Positions 1,021-57,863 of a stretch of 64,000 bases of DNA are shown piece after piece. The DNA is taken from the NCBI GenBank assembly GCA_965153355.1, contig OZ231126.1, forward strand, positions 12,090,001-12,154,000, read 5' to 3'. The notes beneath the pieces are model-generated. The model saw only the letters and a list, made by a program, of their open reading frames with translations, was not told where the DNA came from and did not search any database. Positions within the stretch are counted from its first letter, which is position 1, and each line of letters opens with the position of its first letter. The DNA is from Flaccisagitta enflata. Lineage: Eukaryota. Position numbers and translations under genes: made by a program.

Positions 1021-1165
1021 TAGTCGCGTGCACGCGACTCTACAACCCGCTCTGTCCGTCTGTCGGTCGGTCCGTTGGTCCGTCTTTCGGTCCGTCACGC
1101 TTAGCTTTTTTCGCCGCCCCTGCCCACCCGCACGCGACTGAGGTAGCCGTGTTTTCGGCCTTGTT
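1021..1165 (+). mobile_element. HINE/DINE-1-like non-autonomous Helentron, family A
   Basis: T-run, palindrome AGTCGCGTGCACGCGACT, GTCY microsatellite, 3' subTIR GCACGCGACT, hairpin GCCGTGTTTTCGGC, then TTGTT. Confidence 0.75.
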
Positions 1166-1720
1166 TTTGAGTGACTGAACCGCCGTTTCGATACCGATGG
1201 ATCTTTCTCACTTCTAGAACTTCTATCGATGACAAATGCCACAAAGCTTAACCGTAGTGCACTCCCGTCAATTAACCAGTCTCGATTCGATTCTCTCAAA
1301 ATGTCGGAGTGCAATGTCAGAATTGAGCTCACCCATTTACATTTCCGCGACAAATAAATGCTAAGGTGTTTGACGCGACGTTAAGACAAAACCGGAAAAT
1401 TTCGCAAACGGAGGCAGCGTCAAAACGTTCAACGGTTTCCTCTTCGCCTCATCAGGGGAATGTGTAGGATTTTTGTTTGACTAGGCTCAAATGACGCATT
1501 GATCGATCATTTCTTGGTCTGGTTTGAACCCATTATATCTGTGCGTCCTAAGATCTTACCTACCATTTACTAAGTAAGCAGCAACCAAAACTAACTTCTA
1601 CTTCTAGTAGGAAACGTATCTTTTTCCCAGCCACCTGCAGAATAGGTTTAAGGTTTCGACTTTGCGAAGGAGACAATGAGTCAGGGTAACGAACAGTAAC
1701 TGTCACTCAAATCTCAGAAG

Positions 1721-3782: not shown

Positions 3783-3869
<87 letters not shown>

Positions 3870-4296
3870 TGATTTGAAGTATATATAGACAGGGACAGGA
3901 TTCAATTCTTACTATAGCCTTAGTGAAGGCCTCATGGTAACTCACGTGGTAGACATTTGAATTGCACAGCCAAACATCTTTGAGAAGCAGACTGTAGACA
4001 TGAGGATTGGAGGAGGGGGAGAGAGTTCGAGATAGGAAGAGGAGAGAAGAGGAGGATGAGGAGGATTTCGGGGGTTCATGATGCTTTTGGATATTTATGT
4101 TGAGTCTTCTCTCCTTCTCCTAGCTACGTGGATCACCCTCTTGATTTTCTGTCTTTTCTTGTATATTCATACTTATTTGCATTTTATTAGACTTTCTTTA
4201 TATTCCCCTCAGAAGAGACTTATTATTTACCAAAACTAGCATTGTTTAGAGAAGTAGGATCAGTCATGCCAATAAGCCAGCCAAGCTACCAAACTA
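3870..4296 (+). repeat. 5' LTR (right boundary inferred from the PBS)
   Basis: First 271 bp repeated at 20332-20602; unique 4141-4296 segment runs up to the PBS; starts TGAT. Confidence 0.75.
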
Positions 4297-4298
4297 GG

Positions 4299-4312
4299 TG
4301 GTGGCAGCCGGT
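4299..4312 (+). promoter_or_regulatory. Putative primer-binding site, tRNA-Leu-like
   Basis: TGGTGGCAGC(C)GGT matches the complement of the animal tRNA-Leu(AAG/TAG) 3' end (TGGTGGCAGCGGT): 10 nt perfect, 13 with one extra base. Confidence 0.65.
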
Positions 4313-5022
4313 TTTGGATCTAATTGCCTTGGGGGGGATAATAATGTAAGATATTATGAATATACCCGTCTCCCTCTTGATTCTTTTCTCTCAATACTCT
4401 TTTTTCCTTCTTTTTCTCAATTCACATGGTAGGGAGTTGGAGAAAAGAAAACTTTTAAGGATCAAGACAATAAGATCCAAAATCTTGGTCCAGTAAACAA
4501 ATGCCTCATTGCGATATCAGCACACTCACCTCTCCTCGCTCGACTCACAGTTATCAACTCAAGCGTGCAAAATTGTGATCTGAATATTTTCGAGGGTAAA
4601 ATCTAAAACGCCGATCTCGCGCTGAGCGATCAGAAAACCTTCCAGCCAGCGGAGCCCCCGAAAATGCTAAGTCCGTGAGCGATTAGAAAATCATCCAGTT
4701 GGTAGAGAATGTTTTCTATCAGTCTCCTAAACATTTTTTTGGCGGCTCGTCAGAGTGAGAGGGACTGTTTTTCAAATTCTGTTTTATGGAAAACTAGGAG
4801 TGATGCGCGTAGTAACTAGTCAGTGAGGGCTCACAAGGCCCTCTTCCATTTATTTTAGTTTGGGTATAGTGAGGGATGTTGTTCCACCTATCATACATTA
4901 ATGACGGAAGGTAGTTTTCTGCTTGTCCCTGAGCCTAGATTATCGATATGTCTTTCTACTGGTCAAGTCTCACAGCTTAGGCAGCTATCACCTGCGGGGG
5001 ATAAGAGCAGAAAATGTAAGTA

Positions 5023-5206
5023 CAGTTGAACCCCGCAAAAACGGTTGTCTAGGGAAAAACAAATTTTATCTGTTATAAGCAGATTTCTGGTATTGCCAAT
5101 ACCAATACCAATGCCAATACAATAAGATTACATGAAAAGATTAAAATTCTATGTCCATTTTGAGTGGATTTCCTTACTCCGGGTCTGGTGTAGCGGGGTG
5201 TGACTG
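5023..5206. mobile_element. Tc1/mariner (pogo/Tigger-like) MITE inside the LTR element
   Basis: TA|CAGTTGAACCCCGC ... GCGGGGTGTGACTG|TA: 11/14 inverted match, TA on both sides. Confidence 0.6.
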
Positions 5207-5418
5207 TATAGAAACAGTGACACTTCTTTACATACTGAGACAAAAAGAAAATTTCAGTTTAGAGACAGGCAAAACAGTATCAGAGACAAATATGAAATCT
5301 GAGTTTGGAGACTAGCAGAAAGTCGTTATTTGTTTCAACTTTTCCATTTGTCTCTAAATCTTTATTTTCTGTTTGTCTCTTTACAAGAAAGAAACAACAT
5401 GTCTGAGTGGCTTGCCAT

Positions 5419-8400
5419 CTCATCATTGTCTTGATTGATGCTATTCTTTTAAGGCCAGAGTGAATCTTTTTTTTGATGGAGACAAAAAGAAAATTCTAGT
5501 TCAGAGACAAACAGAAAATGATTGTTCATTTCTGTTTTCTGTTTGTCTCTGAGCCTCGATTTTTTGTTTGTCTCTTGATATTAAAACAAATAGCAATAAC
5601 ATGCCTTGACAGCTGAGGGCGGATGGAGAACCAAACAGAGATTCAAAGAGGAATTTATGAGAGACAAATGGAAAATCAAAGTTTAGAGACAAATAGAAAA
5701 TATTCACTTCTTTAAGTTTTCTTTTTGTCTTTAAATTGCAATTTTCTTTTTGTCTCTTACCACTAGGGCATTTTTACAGGAGTAGTGAGCTTTAAAAAAG
5801 GCAGAGTGCAGGGGAAGTCACCTACATCATTTTTGGCCCAAATCAGCGATTGAGCCACAATACAAATGTAGTAGTGAGCATAGTGTCAACAGGTGGCTGT
5901 TTAAGCTGTCAGAGGCATGTACCCCTATACTAACCAGGAGCAAGAGAACTCACCGTAATGATTCTTAGCCCAAATTAGCTATTGAGCCACTTTGCAAATC
6001 TTATGAGAGCATGGTGTGTATTTTACAGAAGGGGAAACTGGTGAAAAGAGGGGCTAGCGGGGTTAACTCACATGTTAAGCCTGTTTTGGCTTCACCCCAG
6101 ATCAACACCTCAAATTCACCAAAAGCCCCTTATAATATACTTATATATATACAAAGGTTTTCCATAGATCAAATCAGAGATCCTCTTGGGATAGTAAATT
6201 AAGTTGGTTTAACACATGTTTTAACCCCGCTAGCCCCTCATTCTACCCTTCTTAGGATTTTTTGTATGTCTCATTTACATTCTCAGCCACACCCACCTCA
6301 TCATTGTCTTGGTAGATGCTATTCTTTTAAGGCCAGAGTGAACCCTTTTTTGTTTGACGGAGACAAAAAGAAAATTCTAGTTCAGAGACAAACAGAAAAT
6401 GATTGTTCATTTCAGTTTTCTGTTTGTCTCTGAGTCTGAATTTTTTGTTTGTCTCTTAATATTAAAACAAATGCCAATAAATGTGAAAGCCTTGACAGCT
6501 GAGGGCAGATGGAGAACCAAACAGAGAGTCAAAAAGGTATTTATAAGAGACAAATGGAAAATCAAAGTTCAGAGACAAATAGAAAATGTTTATTTCTTTA
6601 AGTTTTCTCTTTTTCTTTAAATTGCAATTTTCTATTTGTCTCTTACCATGAAAAACCAATGGGTCTGAATGGGCTACCCAAGCTGCATGCAGGTGGGCTC
6701 AAGCAGTGATGGAGAAGGCCACTAGGGCATTTTTACAGCAGTAGTGAGCTTTAAAAAAGGCAGAGTGCAGGGGAAGTCACCTACATCATTTTTGGCCCAA
6801 ATCAGCAAGTGAGCCCCAATACAAATGTAGTAGTGAGCATAGTGTCAACAGGTGGCTGTTTAAGCTGTGACACGCATGTACCCCTATACTCACCAGGAGC
6901 AAGAGAACTCAACATAATGATTCTTAGCACAAATTAGCTATTGAGCCACCTTGCAAATCTTATGAGAGCATGGTGTGTATTCTACGGAAGGGGAAACTGG
7001 TGAAAAGAGGGGCTAGCGGGGTTAACTCACATGTTAAGCCTGTTTTGGCTTCACCCCAGATCAACACCTCAAATTCACCAAAAGCCCCTTATAATATACT
7101 TTTATATATACATAGGACTTCCATAGATCAAATCAGAGATCCTCTTAGGATAGTAAGTTAAGTTGGTTTAACACATGTTTTAACCCCGCTAGCCCCTCAT
7201 TCTACCCTTCTTAGGATTTTCCATATGTCTCATTTACATTCTCAGCCACTCCCACCTCATCATTGTCTTGGTAGATGCTATTCTTTTAAGGGCAGAGTGA
7301 ACCCTTTTTTGTTTGACAAAGACAAAAAGAAAATTCAAGTTCAGAGACAAACAGAAAATGATTGTTCATTTCAGTTTTCTGTTTGTCTCTGAGTCTGAAT
7401 TTTTTGTTTGTCTCTTAATATTAAAACAAATGCCAATAAGTGTGAAAGCCTTAACAGCTGAGGGCAGATGGGGAACCAAACAGAGAGTCAAAAAGGTATT
7501 TAAAAGAGACAAATGGAAAATCAAAGTTTAGAGACAAATAGAAAATGTTCATTTCTTTAAGTTTTCTCTTTGTCTTTAAATTGCAATTTTCTTTTTGTCT
7601 CTTACCATGAAAAAACCAATGGGTCTGAATGGGCTACCCAAGTTGCATGCAGGTGGGCTCGAGCAGTGATGGAGAAGGCCACTAGGGCATTTTTACAGGA
7701 GTAGTGAGCTTTAAAAAAGGCAAAGTGCAGGGGAAGTCACCTACATCATTTTTTGCCCAAATCATCGATTGAGCCACAATACAAATGTAGTAGTGAGCAT
7801 AATGTCAACAGGTGGCTGTTTAAGCTGTCAGATGCATGTACCCCTATACTCACCAGGAACAAGAGAACTCACCGTAATGATTCTTAGCCCAAATTAGCTA
7901 TTGAGCCACCTTGCAAATCTTATGAGAGCATGGTGTGTATTCTACAGAAGGGGAAACTGGTGAAAAGAGGGGCTAGCGGGGTTAACTCACATGTTAAGCC
8001 TGTTTTGGCTTCACCCCAGATCAACACCTCAAATTCACCAAAAGCCCCTTATAATATACTTATATATAAACATAGGACTTCCATAGATCAAATCAGAGAT
8101 CCTCTTGGGATAGTAAGTTAAGTTGGGTTAACACATGTTTTAACCCCGCTAGCCCCTCATTCTACCCTTCTTAGGATTTTCTATATGTCTCATTTACATT
8201 CTCAGCCACACCCACTTCATCATTGTCTTGGTAGATGCTATTCTTTTAAGGGCAGAGTGAACCCTTTTTTGTTTGACGGAGACAAAAAGAAAATTCAAGT
8301 TCAGAGACAAACAGAAAATGATTGTTCATTTCAGTTTTCTGTTTGTCTCTGAGCCTCAATTTTTTGTTTGTCTCTTAATATTAAAACAAGGCCGGATACA

Positions 8401-11400
8401 CGGCCAATACCAGTCGCGGAAGGGTGGGCAGGGGCGGAAATGCGTGTTTTCACACTCTCCTACTCGATCACCATGGACCGACCGACGGACCGACCGACGG
8501 ATGGACAAAGCCTCTTATAGAGTCGCTAGTCCGCGACTAACAAATGCCAATAAGTGTGAAAGCCTTAACAGCTGAGGGCAGATGGGGAACCAAACAGAGA
8601 GTCAAAAAGGTATTTAAAAGAGACAAATGGAAAATTAAAGTTTAGTTACAAATAGAAAATGTTATTTTCTTTAAGTTTTCTCTTTGTCTTTAAATTGCAA
8701 TTTTCTTTTTGTCTCTTACCATAAAAAAACCAATGGGTCTGAATGGGCTACCCAAGTTGCATGCAGGTGGGCTCGAGCAGTGATGGAGAAGGCCACTAGG
8801 GCATTTTTACAGGAGTAGTGAGCTTTAAAAAAGGCAAAGTGCAGGGGAAGTCACCTACATCATTTTTTGCCCAAATCATCGATTGAGCCACAATACAAAT
8901 GTAGTAGTGAGCATAATGTCAACAGGTGGCTGTTTAAGCTGTCAGACGCATGTACCCCTATACTCACCAGGAACAGGAGAACTCACCGTAATGATTCTTA
9001 GCCCAAATTAGCTATTGAGCCACCTTGCAAATCTTATGAGAGCATGGTGTGTATTCTACAGAAGGGGAAACTGGTGAAAAGAGGGGCTAGCGGGGTTAAC
9101 TCACATGTTAAGCCTGTTTTGGCTTCACCCCAGATCAACACCTCAAATTCACCAAAAGCCCCTTATAATATACTTATATATAAACATAGGACTTCCATAG
9201 ATCAAATCAGAGATCCTCTTGGGATAGTAAGTTAAGTTGGGTTAACACATGTTTTAACCCCGCTAGCCCCTCATTCTACCCTTCTTAGGATTTTCTATAT
9301 GTCTCATTTACATTCTCAGCCACACCCACTTCATCATTGTCTTGGTAGATGCTATTCTTTTAAGGCCAGAGTGAACCCTTTTTTGTTTTACGGAGACAAA
9401 AAGAAAATTCTAGTTCAGAGACAAACAGAAAATGATTGTTCATTTCAGTTTTCTGTTTGTCTCTGAGTCTGAATTTTTTGTTTGTCTCTTAATATTAAAA
9501 CAAATGCCAATAAATGTGAAAGCCTTGACAGCTAAGGGCAGAGGGAGAGCCAAACAGAGAGTCAAAATGGTTTTTATAAGAGACAAATGGAAAATCAAAG
9601 TTCAGAGACAAATAGAAAATGTTTATTTCTTTAAGTTTTCTCTTTGTCTTTAAATTGCAATTTTCTTATTGTCTCTTACCATGAAACCCCAATGGGTCTG
9701 AATGGGCTACCCAAGTTGCATGCAGGTGGGCTCGAGCAGTGATGGAGAAGGCCACTAGGGCATTTTTACAGCAGTAGTGAGCTTTAAAAAAGGCAGAATG
9801 CAGGGGAAGTCACCTACATCATTTTTGGCCCAAATCAGCAATTGAGCCACAATACAAATGTAGTAGTGAGCATAGTGTCAACAGGTGGCTGTTTAAGCTG
9901 TTAGACGTATGTACCCCTATACTCACCAGGAGCAAGAGAACTCACCATAATGATTCTTAGCCCAAATTAGCTATTGAGCCACCTTGCAAATCTTATGAGA
10001 GCATGGTGTGTATTCTACAGAAGGGGAAACTGGCGAAAAGAGGGGCTAGTGGGGTTAACTCACATGTTAAGCCTGTTTTGGCTTCACCCCAGATCAACAC
10101 CTCAAATTCACCAAAAGCCCCTTATAATATACTTTTATATATACATAGGACTTCCATAGATCAAATCAGAGATCCTCTTAGGATAGTAAGTTAAGTTGGT
10201 TTAACACATGTTTTAACCCCGCTAGCCCCTCATTCTACCCTTCTTAGGATTTTCCATATGTCTCATTTACATTCTCAGCCACACCCACCTCATCATTGTC
10301 TTGGTAAATGCTATTCTTTTAAGGCCAGAGTGAACCCTTTTTTGTTTGACGGAGACAAAAAGAAAATTCTAGTTCAGAGACAAACAGAAAATGATTGTTC
10401 ATTTCAGTTTTCTGTTTGTCTCTGAGCCTCAATTTTTTGTTTGTCTCTTAATATTAAAACAAATGCCAATAAGTGTGAAAGCCTTGACAGCTGAGGGCAG
10501 ATGGGGAACCAAATAGAGAATCAAAAAGGTATTTATAAGAGACAAATGGAAAATCAAACTTTAGAGACATATAGAAAATGTTCATTTCTTTAAGTTTTCT
10601 CTTTGTCTTTAAATTGCAATTTTCTTTTTGTCTCTTACCATGAAAAACCAACGGGTCTGAATGGGCTACCCAAGTTGCATGCAGGTAGGCGCGAGCAGTG
10701 ATGGAGAAGGCCACTAGGGCATTTTTACAGGAGTAGTGAGCTTTAAAAAAGGCAGAGTGCAGGGGAAGTCACCTACATCATTTTTTGCCCAAATCAGCAA
10801 TTGAGCCACAATACAAATGTAGTAGTGAGCATAGTGTCAACAGGTGGCTGTTTAAGCTGTCAGACGCATGTACCCCATACTCACCAGGAACAAGAGAACT
10901 CACGGTAATGATTCTTAGCCCAAATAAGCTATTGAGCCCCCTTGCAAATCTTATGAGAGCATGGTGTGTATTCTACAGAAGGGGAAACTGGTGAAAAGAG
11001 GGGCTAGCGGGGTTAACTCACATGTTAAGCCTGTTTTGGCTTCACCCCGGATCAACACCTCAAATTCACCATAAGCCCCTTATAATATACTTACATATAA
11101 ACATAGGACTTCCATAGATCAAATCAGAGATCCTCTTAGGATAGTAAGTTAAGTTGGTATAACACATGTTTTAACCCCGCTAGCCCCTCATTCTACCCTT
11201 CTTAGGATTTTCCATATGTCTCATTTACATTCTCAGCCACACCCACATCATCATTGACTTGGTAGATGCTATTCTTTTAAGGCCAGAGTGAACCCTTTTT
11301 TGTTTGACGAAGACAAAAAGAAAATTCTAGTTCAGAGACAAACAGAAAATGATTGTTCATTTCAGTTTTCTGTTTGTCTCTGAGTCTGAATTTTTTGTTT

Positions 11401-13450
11401 GTCTCTTAATATTAAAACAAATGCCAATAAATGTGAAAGCCTTGACAGCTGAGGGCAGATGGAGAGCCAAACAGGGAGTCAAAAAGGTATTAATAAGAGA
11501 CAAATGGAAAATCAAAGTTCAGAGACAAATAGAAAATGTTTATTTCTTTAAGTTTTCTCTTTGTCTTTAAATTGCAATTTTCTTTTTGTCTCTTACCATG
11601 AAAAACCAATGGGTCTGAATGGGCTACCCAAGTTGCATGCAGGTGGGCTCGAGCAGTGATGGAGAAGGCCACTAGGGCATTTTTACAGGAGTAGTGAGCT
11701 TTAAAAAAGGCAGAGTGCAGGGGAAGTCACCTACATCATTTTTGTCCCACATCAGCAATTGAGCCACAATACAAATGTAGTAGTGAGCATAGTGTCAACA
11801 GGTGGCTGTTTAAGCTGTCAGACGCATGTACCCCTATACTCACCAGGAGCAAGAGAACTTACCATAATGATTCTTAGCCCAAATTAGCTATTGAGCCACC
11901 ATGCAAATCTTATGAGAGCATGGTGTGTATTCTACAGAAGGGGAAACTGGTGAAAAGAGGGGCTAGCGGGGTTAACTCACATGTTAAGCCTGTTTTGGCT
12001 TCACCCCAGATCAACACCTCAAATTCACCAAAAGCCCCTTATAATATACTTATATATATACATAGGACTTCCATAGATCAAATCAGAGATCCTCTTGGGA
12101 TAGTAAGTTAAGTTGGTTTAACACATGTTTTAACCCCGCTAGCCCCTCATTCTACCCTTCTTAGGATTTTCTATATGTCTCATTTACATTCTCAGTCACA
12201 CCCACCTCATCATTGTCTTGGTAGATGCTATTCTGTTAAGGCCATAGTGAACCCTTTTTTGTTTGATAGAGACAAAAAGAAAATTCTAGTTCAGAGACAA
12301 ACAGAAAATGATTGTTCATTTCAGTTTTCTGTTTGTCTCTGAGCCTCAATCTTTTATTTGTCTCCTAATATTAAAACAAATACCAATAAGTGTGAAAGCC
12401 TTGACAGCTGAGGGCAGATGAAAAACCAAACAGAGGGTCAAAAAGTATTTATAAGAGACAAATGGAAAATGTTTATTTCTTTAAGTTTTCTTTTTGTCTT
12501 TAAGTTGCAATTTTCTTTTTGTCTCTTACTATGAAAAACCAATGGGTCTGAATGGGCTACCCAAGTTGCATGCAGATGGGCTCAAGCAGTGATGGAGAAG
12601 GCCACTAGGGCATTTTTACAGGAGTAGTGAGCTTTAAAAAAGGCAGAGTGCAAGGGAAGTCACCTACATCATTTTTGGTCCAAATCAGCAATTGAGCCAC
12701 AATACAAATGTAGTGGTGAGCATAGTGTCAACAGGTGGCTGTTTAAGCTCCCAGATGCATGTACCCCTATACTAGCCAGGAGCAAGAGAACTCACCGTAA
12801 TGATTCTTAGCCCAAATTAGCTATTGAGCCACCTTGCAAATCTTATGAGAGCATGGTGTGTATTCTACAGAAGGGGAAACTGGTGAAAAGAGGGGCTAGC
12901 GGGGTTAACTCACATGTTAAGCCTGTTTTGGCTTCACCCCAGATCAACACCTCAAATTCACCAAAAGCCCCTTATAATATACTTATATATATACATAGGA
13001 CTTCCATAGATCAAATCAGAGATCCTCTTGGGATAGTAAGTTAAGTTGGTTTAACACATGTTTTAACACCGCTAGCCCCTCATTCTACCCTTCTTAGGAT
13101 TTTCTATATGTCTCATTTACATTCTCAGTCACACCCACCTCATCATTGTCTTGGTAGATGCTATTCTGTTTAGGCCATAGTGAACCCTTTTTTGTTTGAT
13201 AGAGACAAAAAGAAAATTCTAGTTCAGATACAAACAGAAAATGATTGTTCATTTCAGTTTTCTGTTTGTCTCTGAGCCTCGATTTTTGTTTGTCTCTCAG
13301 TATTAAAACAAATGCCAATAAGTGTGAAAGCCTTGACAGCTGAGGGCAGATGGAGAACCAAACAGAGATTCAAGGAGGTATTTATAAGAGAAAAATGGAA
13401 AATCAAAATTTAGAGACAAATAGATAATGTTTAATCCTTTAAGTTTTCTT
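5419..13450. repeat. Tandem array of ~960-bp units (8 full, 1 partial) in the element's 5' leader
   Basis: Marker ATGGTGTGTA at 6011, 6970, 7930, 9044, 10003, 10961, 11920, 12853 (spacings 959, 960, 1114, 959, 958, 959, 933). Unit 1 lacks ~81 bp, unit 4 has a 154-bp insert, unit 8 lacks ~26 bp. Confidence 0.97.
8385..8538 (-). mobile_element. HINE family A copy inserted in array unit 4
   Basis: 154-bp insert relative to sister units; same termini and GTCY repeat; lies between T|T on the element strand. Confidence 0.8.
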
Positions 13451-14952
13451 TTTAACAAAGACAAAAAGAAAATTTCAGTTCAGAGACAAACAGAAAAGGA
13501 TTGTTCATCTCAGTTTTCCGTTTGTCTCTGAGCCTGGATTTTTTGTTTGTCTCATCTACATCCTCAGCCACACCCTGCTCATCATTGTCTTGGTGGCTGC
13601 TTCTCCTTCAAGTACAAAATGAACGCTTATTTGCTTGACAGAGACAAACAGAAAATTTCAAACGAGAGACAAACAGAAAATGGCTATTCTTTTCAGTTTT
13701 CTTTTTGTCTCCAAATCTTTATTTTCTGTTTGTCTCTTAATGTAAAATACATAAGAAGTCTAATGTCAATGTGTCTGAAAGCCTAGACAGCATACAGCTG
13801 ATAGAGAAACCATGAAAAGAGTGAACGTTGGATTTTCTGTTTGTCTCCAACAGACAGAGACAAACAGAAAATGATTATCTACAACAGTGTTCATTGTTTT
13901 TTTAGTTGACAAATAAATTGCTAGCTTGGATTTTCTCAAAATCTCCTTTAATCAGCATTCTATCATCAAAAACTTGATTATCTAATTGGCTCAAATCTTC
14001 TTCGAGACTTTCAAAAAATTTGATTGAGACAACAAAAAAATCATGCAAAAGGAAACGGATTTGTTTTGATGGCAAAAACTGTCAACAAACCACATTTTTT
14101 GGAGGAGTAAGATTTTTTTTCAGTACAGTTTCCCTGCATAGCAACTGAGCCTAGCAGAAAATGAGAAAAAAAGTGCATTTTGACAGTTGAGACCTACTGC
14201 GTCTCAAAATTCGTCTCAATTTGTCTCAAGTCAACAAAGATTAGTTAAGCAAAAGATTTTCAAAGAATAAATCTCGGCTTTCTGACAGAAAAAAAGAAAT
14301 CCTATTGAAAACATCAAAATCGTCCAATAATTTTGAAATAGAAAGAACATTTCTGCAGTAGTTTTTTGTAAAAGAAAGAACAAGCTCTCTGTACCCCGTT
14401 GTTCGCGGATTTTCCAAGAAAAAAAGGCTAGAAACAAAAAACTCAAATGATTTTTATGACATTCCCGCAAAAACACTTATTCAGTTTGCTCGCGCGCCTC
14501 TTATTTCAAAAGAAAAGAATTCTACATTTGTTTCAGAAGAAACTAACCTCTCATAGTGAAAAGAAATCATGAAACTCGTTTGTTTCCAAAATCAAGCCAA
14601 TACAGTGTCATTGAAAACAAAATGAAGATTACAATTTAAAACAGCGTCCCTCTCATACAAATGTCAGCGTTTAACCGCTTTTCCATTCAAAACATTTGAA
14701 AGACTAGTTTCAGTTGCGCCGCGTTCTTCATTTCATGAAAAACTAAGTTTCCTCATATGTAGAAAAAAAGACCTAGACTCGTCTTGATCGCGTTTGCCTA
14801 TTTGAATGAAAAAAAGAAAAAGAAACAATTAACAGCTTATTTTGTTTGCCCTTTGAAAAACGTGATGTTCTAACAACAACAAAGACAAAGACAAAGATAA
14901 AGACAACGACAAAGACAAGATTCGCGGAAAGAGAAATCTACGTCTGGAGAAT

Positions 14953-16929
14953 ATGGAAGAAACTGCACTTGAACGGCCATCGGGTGCCATTTCTATGGCA
15001 GGGCCTCACTTGGCCGGTGAAGCCATGCCCCCAATTCGTCATGCGCAATCTCTCTTTGAAAATCACATCACACTAACAAAACTACAGTAACCTCAGTCTA
15101 ACGTAAACACGACAGATGGTGTGGGAGTGGATGGAGATGGAGGAAGTCAGATGGTAGGACAAGTGTCAGTCGCAATCCATGGACTGGATACGGCAGCGTC
15201 AGATGGCATAAATACACCATCGGGAGCTTCATCATCAGAAACTACGCCATCAGAGACTACGCCATCGGAGGTTACGTCATCAGGAGTCACGTCAACAGGA
15301 GTCACAACAAATGTCACGTCAGCTGGAGTTACGTCAGCTGGGGTTATGTCAACTGGAGTTACGACAACAGGAGTCACATCAACAGGAGTTACGTATACAG
15401 GAGTTACGCCAACGGGAGTTACGCCAACGGGAGTTACGCCAACGGGAGTTACGCCATTAGTAATACCATGTGGAGATACATCAGCAGCAATAACGCAGGC
15501 AACAGTTTTTCTGCCTCAACCGGAGGCGATCGCGTCTTCGGCAGCCGCAGCCGCAGCAGCAGCGGGGGGATCATCGGCAGCAGCAGCCGACTCGAGAATG
15601 ATTGACGAGTCGGCGATTTCGAGTCTTTACATGGGTGAACAATCAATCAATACTGGTAACACACCATTTGTGAAGGAGGTCCATCCCAATACTAGCAAGT
15701 CTGAACAATCACATCCTATTATTTAACTAAATGCAACAACCAAATTCTATGTCCCAAATTTGAATGAGAGACCCAAATCTTTTGAGACTGGTATGACATG
15801 TGATGAATTGAAAACTTTTGTTAATATTTACTTTCCCGATTCAGAGATCACCATCAATGACAATAACGAAATTCCATTTTCTGTTTCTGAGAACACTCCT
15901 TCACTAGGAGTCATAGCAACCATTTGCAAAACTATTGAACTTCTCAATGCAAATCAGTTTGAGAATTCATTGAGGGTGATCTTTGAAAGTAAGGAGCCCA
16001 AAGATATTTTCAGTAGTGGGGAGCTTGCTCAAACCAAAGAGCAAGCATTTTTTGTGTTAGTTTGTATTTTCCGTCTTCTTGTTAATCAAACTTGTCCCGA
16101 CATAGATCACTTTTTCCATTCAGAAGGCCTAGAGTCTTGTGACAAGTTGGGATTGTATGGTGAAGGGGTGACGCCATCTGGTTTTGTTCCTTTGTTTTGT
16201 CGTTTGTCAGTTGAGCATAATATAAAGGAAAAACTTGTTTCTCTGCGTCAATTCTACCAGGACAATCCTCAGGAGGGAGTTGTTGTCAAGGACAACTGCA
16301 TTTACCTGAGTCTCTATCCTAACAACCAGGCTCTGTTCCTTTCATCACCTTTTTTCCCTCCTATGTCAACTGTAGAAGGGCAAAATTCTGTGAAAGGTTT
16401 CTTTCTATGCAAAGTTGTCCAATTCTTTCAAAAGTTGAATCCTTCTACTGTCAATATCTATTTCTCAGACGGTTGGCTCGAGTCTGTAGTAGCAGAAGTA
16501 CAAACTGAAGAAAGAAAGTTCAAGAATCGGCATGAAAAGCGACAAAGGCAGGTCAAGGCTATGAGTGACGAGTCTGTCCGGGTTGTCAATAGTATCCCTT
16601 TATTTGATTCTCAGACAGGACGAAGGCTGAAATGGGGGGAAGAATTCTTCTTTCCTGATGGGGTTGTAGAGAATGAGGGTGAGAATATCAAACAAAAAGA
16701 TGCAGATATTCATGCGGTGTGCCCCAACAATCATCAGCTCCATCATTTCAGTCATGGTAAATTTGTCTGCAATGAGTGTGGGGATGTTGGTAATGGAACT
16801 CATGGAGGTTGTCGCGATTGTACATACAATCTGTGTGAACCTTGCATGATTCCATTCTCCTTGTCACAGGGTTCCTCCTTTCCTCAAAAATCACACGGTA
16901 GCTTTGGATTTCCAAGGCAAGGAGACTGA
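14953..16929 (+). pseudogene. ORF upstream of (probably fused to) gag: Thr-rich GVTxT repeats, unknown globular region, ZZ/C1-like zinc finger; two in-frame TAA
   Basis: ATG 14953 and ORFs 15121..15726 and 15760..16929 share one frame, broken only by TAA at 15088 and 15724. C-terminal motif CPxxHxL..CxxC..CxxCxYxLCxxC. Confidence 0.7.
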
Positions 16930-17719
16930 TTGGAAAGGAAATGGTGGAGAATCGGATTGGCAGTTCCGTAGGGCTCAGCAGGATCGTTACAATGAGATAA
17001 GGTTTAAGACAATGCTCTTAGGTCGGGTAAAATTTTTAAAGAAGGGCGATGAAATAGGCAAGTGGGTGTCTTCTATTCGGTACGCAATTAAGTTCCTTGA
17101 TTTGACAGAGCTCGAGGCCAGGATGTATCTCGTTTCCCATGTGCATGATTTGACTTTAAAGTCCTATGTAGAACAGGTCATGAGAGAATATCCATCTGCG
17201 CCGTTAGATGAGTTGGTCATTCACCTCCAAATTTATTTGGGGGCAAAATCACGGGCTCAAATGTTGGCTGAATCTCGAAAGATGAAAAGGAAGGACCAGG
17301 AGTCAGTATCAGTTTTTTCTTTGAGGGTCCGTGATGTATGGGAGAAAACGCGTCTCACTGATAGTGATAGTGCTGAAGTGTTCAAATCTGAGATTTATCA
17401 GAGGGAAATGCTCCATGCGTTTTACAGTGGTCTGAGAAGTAAGTTTTTTGTTAAGGAGGCAATGGAAACTGAATGTAAGACAATCAAAGAGGCAATTATG
17501 GTTATTTCCGATACAGTTGCCCGATTGATTGAGTTGGAAAATGTCAAAGATGACGAGGATATCTCTCTTCAAACTGACAAAGAGTTGTACCAGCAGCCTG
17601 GGAGTGGCACTTTTGTTGTCAACCAGTTGTTCAACATCGGCGAACTTTATTTTGATGGCAACATTGCCGTTGAAAGTAAAGTTGCCAAGTTGCCTGAGCC
17701 AAATAAAAAGATGCCATGA
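16904..17719 (+). CDS. gag: gag capsid-like region
   Basis: MHR-like KRKDQESVSVFSLRV followed by F..GL and TIKEA motifs typical of the Ty3/gypsy capsid C-terminal domain; +1 frame relative to the upstream ORF. Confidence 0.8.
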   Translation: MDFQGKETDWKGNGGESDWQFRRAQQDRYNEIRFKTMLLGRVKFLKKGDEIGKWVSSIRYAIKFLDLTELEARMYLVSHVHDLTLKSYVEQVMREYPSAPLDELVIHLQIYLGAKSRAQMLAESRKMKRKDQESVSVFSLRVRDVWEKTRLTDSDSAEVFKSEIYQREMLHAFYSGLRSKFFVKEAMETECKTIKEAIMVISDTVARLIELENVKDDEDISLQTDKELYQQPGSGTFVVNQLFNIGELYFDGNIAVESKVAKLPEPNKKMP

Positions 17720-18027
17720 ATTTCATTACAGGCTCAGCTGAAATGTGTGCAAACTGCGGGCAACCTTTGTCTCATACAAGATCTAAAGGGGTTTGTCCTG
17801 CAAGAAATCGTAAGTGCTACGCTTGTGGTGCTATAGGTCACATGGCTCGTTACTGCCAAAGAGGGGCTTCCAAAACAAAAGTCGTGTCGGTTCCCTCAAG
17901 TGTTAGTGCCAATGTTGGTAGCAAGAAGGTGGATAAAGATGTAGCTCATGTGGTAAATGTGGTAAATGTAGCTCATGTGGTAAATGCCATCAAGGCATTC
18001 AAAATGAGAAAGTCAAAGAAAAAGTGA
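17707..18027 (+). CDS. gag: gag nucleocapsid region with two zinc knuckles
   Basis: CYACGAIGHMARYC is a canonical CX2CX4HX4C, preceded by the variant CANCGQPLSHTRSKGVC. Joins the capsid frame by a -1 shift in the A-run at 17705-17709. Confidence 0.85.
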   Translation, partial: KDAMNFITGSAEMCANCGQPLSHTRSKGVCPARNRKCYACGAIGHMARYCQRGASKTKVVSVPSSVSANVGSKKVDKDVAHVVNVVNVAHVVNAIKAFKMRKSKKK

Positions 18028-18284
18028 GTTTGGGTTAGTTAAATTTGGGTTTGTTAAGAATTCGAGTTATCTAAAATCTAGCTAAGGGGGGATAGTATTA
18101 CTCACGGAAATGTTTTACTGGTAAGTTAGCTAAATTTTAGATGAATAAGAAATAATTTCAGGAGTCTGTTAATGTATGCTTGCAAAGATTTATAGTTAAA
18201 TTGAATGACTGATAATTTGATTGGCAGACTGATTGTCAGTATAATTGCTAGATTGATTGATTGATTGATTGACTGATTGTCAGT

Positions 18285-18342
<58 letters not shown>

Positions 18343-20321
18343 AGTTACGTGAGTGACTGTAAGTGGTGACTGATTGATTTCATTGCATATTACTTCAGCT
18401 ATGGTTTCACTTGTCTAGCCAGTCCAAAAAAGTTGGGTCTCGAATTTCTCTCTCCTTTTTTCTCTCCCATTTTACTCTTTCATTTACAGCAAATCATTTC
18501 TTTGAACAAAGCTTGAGTCTAGTTATTTAGAAACGCAGTTGCCATAGAGTTTGGAGATCTGTGTTATGAATAAAGAGTTACTGATTTCTGCATAGTAGAG
18601 TGATGGGAGTAAGGTATGTTGATTAAAGTGGTGAGTAACATTTGTTTCTTTGAAATTACCAATTTCAAAACAAATCTTTTCATTTCATTTCATTTCATTT
18701 CATTTCACTTCTTATCTATCATCTTCCATTCTCTTTTCTCCCATTCTTTTCTGATATGATTGTCTCTTGTGTCTCTTGGTTTTGCGCGGTCATGAGACTC
18801 CGTCTGAAGGAAGTCATATAGGTTGAGAGGAGCACCATTTTCCCCTTCCAGACTCGGGAAAACTAGGCGTCTAAGTTACTTGTGTGTTACACTGTGTCAA
18901 GGTGGTGCCCTTCACGCTAGTTCCGGGGTGATGGATTCAGACAGTCTGCATAGATGTAATGAGAGAGTGTTCAGGAGTGACCGTTAGGACGAGCCCTAGA
19001 GAAGGCAGTTAGGACGAGACACCAGGACATTCTAGGTCAATGTGCATGTGCCATATGAGAAAAGATATGTGCATGTAGCATTGGAATGTTTGAATGGCTC
19101 TCCCCCAGGAGCTAGGAGATAATCATTTCATCTATCTTTTGTGTTTCTCTAATTTTCGCACAAACATACTTAAGATGTGGGTTTCGCGCAATCAGTTGTA
19201 CTATATCTGTTGGTTAAGCGCAACATATTACGGGTATGTTGCAGATGGGTGCACTTAGAGTTAGATTGTGTTTAGGAGTGCCCCTGGAGTGTAGTTTTGC
19301 TAACCAGACAGATTAGTAGGTGATATAATTAGAGTGGTTTCTTGATGAATCCCAACGAGTGCCAGCTTGCCTAGGGGGTATAGAGGCCCTGCTGGGAGCT
19401 TGCTGGCTGTTACTTTTAGTGTGGATCCTATTGTACTGACCGTTGGAGGGCGGCTGGAACTGCCGGTTCCAGTGGCAGCCTGTCACTCTCCCCAAAATTC
19501 TTAAGTTATGGTTGTGTCTCTTTTGTCTTTGATTGTTCCTTTTGTGTCCTACTTTGCCTTGTATTGTAATGTTGATCAACTATTTCACTTGTGTAACTCA
19601 ATCTTTTATTTCATTGATTTCATACTGATGAATTTTGTAGCATGAACAAATTCCTGTCAAACTCATGGAAGGTATTAGTTACCTGGAGTGTTTAATTTCA
19701 TTCCCTTTTGCATAGAACATAAATTAGTTTTAGTTTGATTTTTGTAAATATCATGTGCTTTTATTTCATATAATATATGGTCACTTGAATGTCTCAATTT
19801 TGCTAGTGCATTTTGTTTCGTAGCAGGATATCATATGACTAAAAGTTTGTAACTTTAAGGCTACTTTTACTTTGTCTTATCATTAACTTATGCCACGTTT
19901 TTTTCATGGACGATTGATTTTACGACACTATCAAACATTCATTAGCTTTTGATGATTTTTAAAATGCCTTTCTTTTAATCTTAACATTTAGTAGTTGTTT
20001 TCAATGCGATTGTTAAAATGGAAACTTTTGGTTATTTGATAGTATTCTCTAAATTCTCTTGAAGCTAAAATTGTAGTCTGGGGGGATGTTGACTTTTTTT
20101 ATTCAATTTCCTTCCGTAAGATAATCATATTGATGTTTTCTTAATTGACAAACCATTTGTTTTTTATTACATGAAGCTTAAGAGTAACTCAATGCTTATG
20201 TACTTTTGAGGTTTGATACTGTTTAGCATTGAATATTTTCCCTGTCTATTGCTAAGGTGGGTTCAGAAAATTTTAGGACATAAATGTACGAGGACCTTTT
20301 GTCTTCGGGCATTTCTGTCCT

Positions 20322-20329
20322 AGGGGGGA
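20322..20329 (+). promoter_or_regulatory. Polypurine tract
   Basis: AG-rich G-run ending 2 nt before the TG of the 3' LTR. Confidence 0.75.
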
Positions 20330-20331
20330 CC

Positions 20332-20745
20332 TGATTTGAAGTATGTATAGACAGGGACAGGATTCAATGCTTACTATAGCCTTAGTGAAGGCCTCATGGT
20401 AACTCACGTGGTAGACATTTGAATTGCACAGCCAAACATCTTTGAGAAGCAGACTGTAGACATGAGGATTGGAGGAGGGGGAGAGAGTTCGAGATAGGAA
20501 GAGGAGAGAAGAGGAGGATGAGGAGGATTTCGGGGGTTCATGATGCTTTTGGATATTTATGTTCAGTCTTCTCTCCTTCTCCTAGCTACGTGGATCACCC
20601 TCCTCCAATCCTCATGTCTACAGTCTGCTTCTCAAAGATGTTTGGCTGTGCAATTCAAATGTCTACCACGTGAGTTACCATGAGGCCTTCACTAAGGCTA
20701 TAGTAAGCATTGAATCCTGTCCCTGTCTATATATACTTCAAATCA
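20332..20745 (+). repeat. 3' LTR: 271-bp direct copy followed by a 148-bp inverted copy of the LTR start (fold-back)
   Basis: 20598-20745 is the reverse complement of 20332-20479 and of 3870-4017 (1 mismatch to each); junction microhomology CCCTC. Confidence 0.95.
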
Positions 20746-21190
20746 AGAGAGAGAGAGAGAGAGAGAGAGTCAGACAGACAGACAGACAGATAGACAGACA
20801 GACAAACAGAGGAAGAGAGAAAAGAACAACCGCGTGACACCAACAACAATAAGCAAAGAAAAAACAATGCCAAGAAAAAACAAGGCCGGATACACGTCTA
20901 CCGTAGTTGAGTGCTCATGGGCAGGGGCAGGGATGAATAAGTCTAATCAAATACTGTAGCAGGGGCTATGATTCAAAAATTGTCTGTAAATAGAAAGAAA
21001 AAACATTGCCGACAGATGAACTGACAGGTAGATTGACCGACCAAGCCGACCAAGCCTCTCATTGAGTTGGGTGTAAGGAAGAAAAGGAGAAAGAAGAAAA
21101 GACGAAATATGGGAAGTGAGAAAAAAATCAATAAGAAAAACAGAAAAGAATCTGAGAGTGTACACATTGGAAAATGAAAAAAAAATATGG

Positions 21191-39188: not shown

Positions 39189-39702
39189 CTGAAAATACAA
39201 AATCGTAAAAGAAAGAAAATTCAAAACAAAATAGCAATCAAGACAAATTAGCCATCATCAGTTATTCGAACACAAGACAGCGGAAATTTCCAGTATATAA
39301 CTTGGAAAAGATGTTTAAACAATGTGGTAACAATAAAAGCGTGTTTCATTCAACGTAAGCTTACATCTGCTACCCTCGTTTAAACATTTTCCCTTCCCTT
39401 TCCTCACCCCCCCCCCCGTTCAAAAAAAAAGGAGGTGAAAAAAAACTTTACTTTCTCTCTCTTTCGTGTTCATTAACCGCTTTATTGGTTTGTGACAAGG
39501 AAACAAGATTGTTTTACCAAATATTTTCTGCTCACAACAAGCAGGGGAAAAAACGAATGATGAAAAAAACATGTTTCTTGAAAGACCATTGACGAAATAA
39601 TAAATGGTTTCTTAAAGACGTTTTTCAACCGAACACATCCTTTTTAAAAGATTGAAAAAAAAGGGGAAAAAAATAGAGAAAAAACGCGAGTATTGACAAA
39701 AA

Positions 39703-39906
39703 AACAAGGCCGGATACACGGCTACCCCAGTCGCGTGCGGGGGGGCAGGGGCCATATTAGAGGTTGCTTTATCATTTGGGCAGGAGCAGTGAGGCTAAAA
39801 ACCGCAAATACACCAAAAAAGTAATGTGTGGCAGACCGACGGACCAATGTACGGACGGACCGACGGACAAACAAAGCGGGTTGTAGAGTCGCGTAGCACG
39901 CTACTA
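39703..39906 (-). mobile_element. HINE family A copy
   Basis: Same termini and core as the other copies. Confidence 0.75.
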
Positions 39907-55080: not shown

Positions 55081-56159
55081 CCACATCCTCCTCCTCGTCC
55101 TCTTCCTTTCTTTTCTCGCGATAAACATACGTATGTTTCTGTGTTTGTCTGAGATTCGGACATACCGTGGCTACGTTTTTTGGAGGAGAGATGATGAGGA
55201 GGAAGAGGAGATAGAGGAGGAAGAGCAGATAGAAGAGGAAGAGGAGGAACGGTTTGAGGAGAAAGAGGAGACGAAGAAGAAGGAAAGGGAGGAAAGTTAG
55301 ATTCAGCAAAAGTATAGAAAGTCCCGAGTCATAGCTTTGCTTTTGAAGTAAAATCTGATATTTTCAATCATGTTAATGCAAGGAAAACAAAACGAAATTG
55401 ATTGCCTTTATGATAAGTGAAATCAAGTTGTTCACAACGCTTAATCTGAGGGAGCCAATATAGTTCTTAAGAAATAGCGCACATGGAAGCAAATCTATGT
55501 GGTAGCACATAATGGCACATTGAAGTTTTCTTTTTCGGAAAGCATAATCTTAAGCATAGGTGGCCTAAGAAAGTCGCGAAAGAAAGCATCAGCAAACACT
55601 CCATTTCAAACGTTGAATCCTAATTGTCAGGTAAATACGTTCCCAATTTTTAAGTCACAAGTACCTGGGAACTGGCTTAAATCTGAATCAAGTCCGATCG
55701 GGCTATTACTGGTAAAGTAAATTTCGCGAATCGGCCGAAAAATGCGATTTCTCGGGAGGCACAACGGATCGATTCCATGCAAAATTTTGGGCCACTGAGA
55801 TAATAGGAACCTTCGTTAGGGTGAGGTTGAAGTTTGTATTGAATTAGCATTAAAAACACGTTTAATTTCATGATGGAGTAGTACAGTGCAACGCAAAAAC
55901 AACTTTTTTGCCTGAATTTTCGAAAGCCACTTTGGGCATCATCATCAGCGAGACTGTGACGACGGTGTGAGACGCTCCAAGAGACGGCACGAGACGGTGT
56001 GAGACGCTCGGATGCGTTTGTTTTCCGGTCAGAGATTTCCCCAACGGCTTTCTCCGATTTATGGACGAGTCAAGGAACCAGTTTTTGGATGCGAACTGAC
56101 GACTTATTGCTCCTTGATAATCCCTCGCGTGGTCAACCGAAAAAGACGATTTGTTAAAT

Positions 56160-56355
56160 AACAAGGCCGGATACACGGCTACCCCAGTCGCGTGCGGGTG
56201 TGCAGACGGTGTGAGACGCTCGATGCGTTTGTTTTCAGGCAGAGAAGCCCCAACGGCAGAAACCGAAAAATGGACGAGTCAAGGACCAGTTTTTGGACGC
56301 GAACGGACGGACGGATTGACCGACAATCCTTTGCGAGTCGCGTAAGCACGCGAAA
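56160..56355 (-). mobile_element. HINE family A copy with atypical interior
   Basis: Family termini; interior 56204-56310 resembles nearby 55992-56103. Confidence 0.7.
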
Positions 56356-57542: not shown

Positions 57543-57733
57543 TAGTCGTGTGCACGCGACTCTACAACCCGCTTTGTCCGTCGGTCGGTTGGTCGGTTGG
57601 TTGGTCACACTTTACTTTTTTTTATGATTTTATTTCTTTGACCTCACTGCTCCTGCCAAAATGTTCTGGTGACCTCAAATATGGCTTCTGCCCACCCGCA
57701 CGCAACTGCGGTGGCCGTGTATCCGGCCTTGTT
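57543..57733 (+). mobile_element. HINE family A copy
   Basis: TAGTCGTGTGCACGCGACTCTACAACCCGC...GGCCGTGTATCCGGCCTTGTT. Confidence 0.78.
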
Positions 57734-57863
57734 TCTTTAAAAGTTTCCCCTCCTCCTTTTTTTATCATCACCTTCTCTTTTTTTTCCTTTATCCTTTTCT
57801 CGTCCTTTTTTGTTGTTTTAATCATATTTGAATTGTTGTTGTTGTTGTTATTGTTGTTGATGA

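Follow-up and report, generated by a model that had tools for sequence, protein, structure and literature searches.

An aberrant fold-back 3' LTR in a gag-only LTR retrotransposon of Flaccisagitta enflata

The LTR retrotransposon described here ends, on its right side, in an inverted copy of its own beginning, and this fold-back locus is very probably a real, one-off aberrant copy rather than a trait of the family to which the element belongs. All coordinates given below are positions in the window, i.e., in the whole 64,000-nt stretch of DNA that was analyzed, taken from the Flaccisagitta enflata contig OZ231126.1 (12,090,001-12,154,000, forward strand) of the assembly GCA_965153355.1. The element occupies 3870-20745 and is a 16.9-kb non-autonomous, gag-only LTR retrotransposon, LARD-like, of a marine plankton genome; its parts are listed in Table 1.

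Structure of the element and of its 3' LTR

Comparison of the window with itself (BLAST) aligned 3870-4140 with 20332-20602 as a direct repeat of 271 bp (98.9% identity, 3 mismatches, no gaps) and 20598-20745 with 4017-3870 as a reverse-strand match of 148 bp with 1 mismatch. In the same comparison 3870-4020 matched the reverse strand of 20595-20745 over 151 bp with 2 mismatches, and the repeat search recovered the same arms, 151 nt long, 99% complementary and separated by 112 nt; counted strictly, the hairpin has a 148-bp stem and a 118-nt loop. The original prediction had described this arrangement as a 3' LTR that after 271 bp of direct repeat switches, at CCCTC, into the reverse complement of LTR positions 1-148, stops exactly on ...AAATCA beside the (GA)n flank and forms a 148-bp stem with a 118-nt loop. 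All these statements were borne out: the direct repeat by BLAST, the switch by BLAST and by a three-way alignment of the 5' LTR, the direct 3' copy and the inverted arm, the stopping point by the identity of 20745 with LTR base 1, and the stem and loop by the repeat search and the strict count.

In the three-way alignment the letters at the junction are ...GGATCACCCTC followed directly by CTCCAATCC..., and the overlap of the two parts, when stretched to 20595, matches at 7 of 8 positions. The final letters of the inverted arm are ...CTTCAAATCA at 20745, after which (AG)12 and (CAGA)n follow. As single-stranded DNA, the 414-nt stretch made up of the direct part and the arm folds at -199.2 kcal/mol, against -44.9 +/- 3.9 kcal/mol for its shuffled versions (z = -39.8, with none of the 100 shuffles equalling it), which chance would not produce. 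The termini of the element are TG at 3870 and CA at 20745, the latter CA coming from the inverted U3 start, while ...CTA stands at 4296, where the normal LTR is presumed to end. The fold-back 3' LTR has nothing past base 271, that is, the rest of U3, R, and U5 are missing and the last ~156 bp are gone.

The copies of the LTR differ at several positions. At LTR position 14 the 5' LTR, the direct 3' copy and the inverted arm read A, G, and A, respectively; at position 38 they read T, G, and G; at position 233, G in the 5' LTR stands against C in the direct 3' copy. As for the 5' LTR itself, its end at 4296 is presumed from the letters: CAAACTA (4290-4296) matches the LTR start TGATTTG in inverted orientation at 5 of 7 positions. 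The interval 4141-4300, which holds the presumed remainder of this LTR (4141-4296), had no other match in the window when the latter was compared with itself by BLAST.

Table 1. Parts of the element, its flanks and a dispersed motif, in window coordinates
Feature	Position	Strand	Remarks
5' flank	3785-3869	.	(GA)41 microsatellite, last letters ...GAGAGCG
5' LTR	3870-4296	+	3870-4140 (LTR 1-271) confirmed repeated; 4141-4296 presumed
PBS-like TGGTGGCAGCCGG	4299-4311	+	2 nt past the presumed LTR end; read from sequence
Tandem array of eight ~959-bp units	5692-13064	+	Repeat search; spacings 933-1114
400-aa open frame, unknown family	15727-16929	+	Cys-rich C-terminus
gag-like (capsid-like) open frame, 289 aa	16850-17719	+	Relatives P0004-P0006
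Nucleocapsid-like frame, CCHC zinc knuckle	17707-18027	+	PF00098, 23.5 bits (cut-off 20.8)
Polypurine-tract-like AGGGGGGA	20322-20329	+	2 nt before the 3' LTR
3' LTR, direct part (LTR 1-271)	20332-20602	+	BLAST, three-way alignment
Junction overlap CCCTC	20598-20602	+	Fits LTR 267-271 and the reverse complement of LTR 144-148
Inverted arm, reverse complement of LTR 1-148	20598-20745	-	Last base is LTR base 1
3' flank	20746-20806	.	(AG)12 at 20746-20769, then (CAGA)n
~50-nt motif	20880-20930	+	
~50-nt motif	39699-39752	+	
~50-nt motif	57688-57738	-	
~50-nt motif	1116-1168	-	
~50-nt motif	56156-56183	+	

Of the usual retrotransposon genes the element has gag alone. The capsid-like part is 77% identical to the metagenomic relative P0005, and the capsid-like and knuckle parts, which form one frame in P0005, lie in two different frames in the window, so that gag is broken here. 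The protein-atlas neighbours of the capsid-like part, weak ones, carry Retrotrans_gag with a score of 0.91 and serve as a lead only. A search for longer relatives of the gag-like protein, seeking a gag-pol partner, gave no scored candidate (0 of 2368). As to pol, no family of protease, reverse transcriptase (RT), RNase H or integrase was found in the six frames scanned against Pfam, the open-frame list contains no plus-strand frame of at least 60 aa between 18028 and 20331 (frame 1 of this interval alone has 57 stops), and neither the Pfam scan nor the open-frame list yielded a recombinase or RT frame. The absence of pol makes the element non-autonomous. Pfam likewise gave no family for seven further long open frames in the window.

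Some further features of the interior deserve mention. The ~959-bp units of the tandem array are 94-100% alike and represent satellite-like DNA inside a retrotransposon. The 400-aa frame upstream of gag showed no Pfam family above cut-off; it has a C-terminal Cys/His-rich stretch of the form C-x2-C ... C-x2-C ... C-x2-C, and the element may have captured this frame or use it as an accessory gene. The open frame 15091-15726 encodes Thr/Gly/Val-rich repeats of the TGVT type and overlies a 15-nt tandem repeat (15271-15453). The tRNA scan revealed no tRNA gene in the window with which the PBS-like site could be compared. The window as a whole is very rich in (GA)n/(CT)n and other microsatellites (91 rows in Tandem Repeats Finder); (GA)n arrays, each 40-150 repeats long, number in the dozens and recur every ~1-2 kb across it, and the element sits in a (GA)n microsatellite.

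The family in public sequence data

According to the word index, the 3' end of the element is present in 11 of the 14 listed public runs, which belong to 7 studies and include two "organism A" runs and several marine metagenomes. The short-read contigs of four runs (X1, X4, X2, and X7) were aligned over window positions 19800-20900. The word depth of the LTR and of the internal stretch preceding it reaches hundreds to thousands in X1 and X4, while one flank bin in X1 has a depth of 38.8 and is probably near single-copy; the difference indicates that the family is abundant.

Past 20602, four contigs (two from X1, one from X4, and one from X2) proceed as TTGATTTTC(T/C)GTCTTTTCTTG..., and TTGATTTTC(T/C)GTC... 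is the sequence that follows LTR base 271 in the 5' LTR, from 4141 on. This continuation of the contigs past LTR 271 demonstrates that normal LTRs exist in the family. At 20369 (LTR position 38) every covering contig of all four runs carries T, as does the 5' LTR, because of which T38 is to be regarded as the family majority and G38, common to both arms of the 3' hairpin, as the derived base. This bears on one more argument of the original prediction, namely, that the inverted arm lacks the private substitution of each direct copy and hence is not a fold-back of a sequencing read: the differences named there are real in the alignment, but the argument is weakened, T38 being the majority base and G38 not an ancestral one.

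None of the 26 contig pieces listed for the four runs (821 more lie beyond the listing) crosses 20602/20603, which is not evidence of absence, and the bin 20614-20650 has zero cover in X1, X2, and X7. Contigs drop rare variants, and those at hand are without the window's G at 20369; this copy is therefore unrepresented in them, even in the run that holds the family best. JGI metagenome contigs gave no match to the LTR 252-271 pattern, and IMG/VR viral contigs none to this pattern or to that of the LTR start. The LTR-start pattern had one match among the JGI contigs (L001, 850-870), which was rejected as 21 nt matching by chance in an unrelated, AT-rich contig.

Two further observations concern the neighborhood of the 3' LTR. 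In one contig each from X1 and X2, 126 nt of the internal region before this LTR (20100-20227) are swapped for 133 other letters; this replacement marks a sub-family variant of the element. Downstream of the element lies one of five copies of a ~50-nt dispersed motif, AACAAGGCCGGATACACGGCTACC.CAGTCGCGTGCGGGTGGGCAGGGGC, which occur in the window between unrelated flanks. The word depth at 20873-20900 is 238,509 in X1, 171,277 in X4, and 8,438 in X2, indicating that in organism A the motif is a short repeat of extreme abundance; Rfam gave no match at the gathering threshold, for the motif or otherwise.

The original prediction had also considered that, if family-wide, the structure would imply an unusual replication route. 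That the family regularly ends in an inverted repeat, in the manner of DIRS or fold-back elements, and replicates in some unusual way is extremely improbable, since nothing beyond this one copy speaks for it, and the contigs of three runs, four in number, have the normal LTR continuation past 20602. The PPT-like and PBS-like sites are, moreover, marks of an ordinary LTR element. In the established scheme of retroviral strand transfer, the 3' R of the transcript is needed for transfer of the first strand. A 3' LTR without R and U5 would give a transcript without the 3' R, and the structure would not be heritable via the ordinary LTR cycle; that such a truncated 3' LTR could hardly be copied by the standard cycle is a stronger argument than the contigs.

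Origin of the right end

As to the way in which such an end could have arisen, the reading that we tentatively prefer is that it was mis-made by snap-back of the nascent plus strand during reverse transcription and then integrated, although this reading and that of an opposed LTR followed by a deletion, discussed below, fit the data about equally. In the preferred case, a plus strand primed at the PPT would copy LTR bases 1-271 and detach from the template at a point where the LTR has the foot of its own, weak purine/pyrimidine hairpin. The strand would then fold back, its 3' CCCTC pairing with GAGGG (144-148), and self-templated extension would proceed until run-off at the strand's own 5' end, i.e., at LTR base 1. 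The resulting top strand would consist of the 5' LTR, the internal region, the PPT, LTR 1-271 and the reverse complement of 148-1, and its end ...AAATCA-3', with a CA identical to that of the left U3 terminus, could, like the normal left end, be joined to the (GA)n target, the complementary strand being made by host repair and replication. We infer every enzymatic step of this route; the structure, the stop on base 1, the 5-nt overlap and the predicted pairing of 267-271 with 144-148 come from the analyses themselves.

Several features are in line with the snap-back. The arm ends exactly on LTR base 1 and gives way to the flank, as run-off at a free 5' end predicts, and the 5-nt overlap at the junction (7/8 when extended) is as in template switches. 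When nascent strands LTR 1..p were folded in silico for p = 160-427, the minimum-energy fold had at least 4 paired bases at the 3' end for 18 of the 268 end points; p = 271 is one of these 18, with 5 pairs and base 144 as the partner, which is the observed join. The predicted fold of this strand thus pairs CCCTC with GAGGG 144-148 exactly at the junction, and the fold of the native 5' LTR has the same closing helix, 267-271 with 144-148. However, the hairpin of the native LTR has little stability (-16.1 kcal/mol, z = -1.6, 11 of 200 shuffles folding equally well), and the LTR shares 236 5-mer pairs with its own reverse complement. The same self-complementarity gives microhomology for end-joining of an LTR with an inverted LTR and, being common to both readings, makes the match of the fold only a modest discriminator between them. 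The base G38, present in the direct 3' copy and in the arm, where the 5' LTR and all the aligned contigs have T, fits an arm copied from the adjacent copy. The (GA)n runs on the same strand on both sides of the element, in a phase that would allow a target duplication of 4 or 6 bp containing one mismatch (AGCG vs. AGAG, or AGAGCG vs. AGAGAG); such a duplication, imperfect and lying in a microsatellite, carries almost no information.

The snap-back has its precedents and its difficulties. Strong-stop DNA of HIV-1 self-primes in vitro via a hairpin and is extended by RT, according to a review (PMC6088434), and for complex LTR insertions of Triticeae template switching in reverse transcription has been proposed (Sabot and Schulman, 2007; PMC1950507). 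But the same review presents self-primed products as dead ends, undetected in endogenous HIV-1 reactions (PMC6088434), and the snap-back needs unobserved steps: re-priming at the PPT, removal of the primer, joining of a second U3-type end, and removal of a flap. The template switch during reverse transcription, with which the original prediction had explained the locus, is a coherent proposal that gains slight support from the fold of LTR 1-271.

The alternative named in the original prediction, a second copy in opposite orientation reduced by a deletion, is possible, too, if somewhat doubtful. A second copy or a solo LTR would have lain downstream, tail to tail with the resident one (or an aberrant one-ended integration would have placed it there), and a microhomology deletion would have followed: the two LTRs would form a near-palindrome, a break near its center would be closed by end joining of CCCTC (267-271) to the inverted CCCTC, and the loss would comprise the resident LTR's last ~156 bp, any spacer, and everything past bp 148 of the second LTR. 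In this case the end of the arm is a true integration end, LTR base 1 adjoining flank DNA; a 5-nt microhomology is typical of deletions of this sort, the 236 shared 5-mers make joins easy, and the depth of the family in X1 shows its members to be abundant. Published work describes palindromes as being revised by a break in the center and error-prone joining (PMC3300023, citing Cunningham et al., 2003) and illegitimate recombination as often removing DNA from LTR elements (PMC1940013). Against this, two rare events at one spot are required; nothing further of a second copy is seen, 4141-4300 being unmatched elsewhere in the window, so that the alternative fits about as well as the snap-back but has left no other trace. 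G38 in both arms requires that the second copy came from the same rare sub-lineage or that gene conversion took place later, and it would be by chance that the join falls on the helix closing the minimum-energy fold of LTR 1-271. An assembly or library artefact, i.e., a chimera of the 3' LTR with an opposite-orientation LTR from elsewhere that makes everything right of 20602 a different locus, we consider unlikely. The junction is known from the assembly alone, and inverted chimeras at short complementary stretches are a product of multiple-displacement amplification, which is often applied to plankton cells. Yet a simple fold-back read would go on into the reverse-complemented PPT and internal region, and here the arm halts at LTR base 1 with (AG)n next to it, which upholds the earlier judgment that such a read is an unlikely source; besides, the arm and the adjacent direct copy differ at LTR position 14 (A/G), the (GA)n lies on the same strand on both sides of the element, and, unless a chimeric read supports it, no assembler overlap could link an LTR with an inverted LTR at a 5-nt match. 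We give still less credit, and in fact very little, to fold-back by the host after integration, in which a break or a stalled fork would leave a 3' end at base 271 that folds onto GAGGG 144-148 and copies backwards, an event of the kind that starts palindromic and inverted duplications. It shares the hairpin pairing with the reverse-transcription model and accounts for G38 in both arms, and short inverted repeats have been proposed to seed inverted copy-number variants whose palindromic junctions are unstable (PMC10766186). A chromosomal template, however, runs past LTR base 1, and copying should have reached the PPT and the internal region; the stop on base 1, followed by (AG)n of original appearance, would require a second precise switch.

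Relation to known systems and meaning of the locus

With its two ends being inverted copies of each other, the element resembles DIRS-like retroelements. DIRS elements, however, carry inverted terminal repeats in every copy, use a tyrosine recombinase and have no PPT/LTR arrangement. Assignment to a DIRS-like element was rejected on the grounds that contigs continue normally past LTR 271 and that no recombinase or RT frame was found in the element. A fold-back or MITE-type DNA transposon was likewise rejected, despite the 148-bp inverted ends, in view of the direct LTR, the PPT-like tract, gag, and the normal LTR of the family.

Closer parallels are found among aberrant products. The insertions analyzed by Sabot and Schulman (2007; PMC1950507) are comparable in that a cDNA rearranged by template switching is integrated as one unit; they are direct fusions of two parents sharing an LTR, whereas here the strand would be switched within one LTR, giving an inverted arm. 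The snap-back of HIV-1 DNA would have in common with our case a nascent 3' end on a hairpin, self-extension by RT, and a dead end for strand transfer; that reaction, however, takes place in vitro on minus-strand strong-stop DNA with the TAR hairpin, and nucleocapsid suppresses it (PMC6088434), while here, if the snap-back is true, it is the plus strand in U3 that folds and the product is fixed in the genome. Palindrome revision and illegitimate recombination (PMC3300023, PMC1940013) share with our locus the asymmetric deletion at a microhomology that leaves a shorter, spaced inverted repeat; palindrome revision requires a pre-existing pair of opposed LTRs, of which there is no trace here. In all, we regard the fold-back end as a variant on aberrations that are already known, namely, on template-switch products and microhomology deletions. 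None of the top matches of the literature search described an LTR that terminates in its own start, inverted; as a sign of the novelty of a fold-back or inverted 3' LTR this negative result is weak.

Whichever origin is true, the locus is one dead copy and gives no hint of a new route of replication; in the event of a post-integration origin, it exemplifies the ordinary trimming of opposed repeats by microhomology joining. Annotation tools for LTR elements would label the element as both LTR and TIR, which makes it a warning case for annotators, and in practice the copy may be used as a marker locus. It is possible, albeit far from certain, that we have here the genomic fossil of a self-primed plus strand which nevertheless became integrated, the machinery having joined two U3-type ends in vivo; if so, genomes are open to a product that has been known only from in-vitro reactions, as a dead end. 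An origin in reverse transcription would provide direct genomic evidence of hairpin self-priming in an LTR element and would mean that a cDNA with two U3 ends is integrable, which bears on how strictly integrase recognizes its ends in vivo. As for the family itself, the 148-bp U3 hairpin of this copy could feed hairpin-derived small RNAs directed against it.
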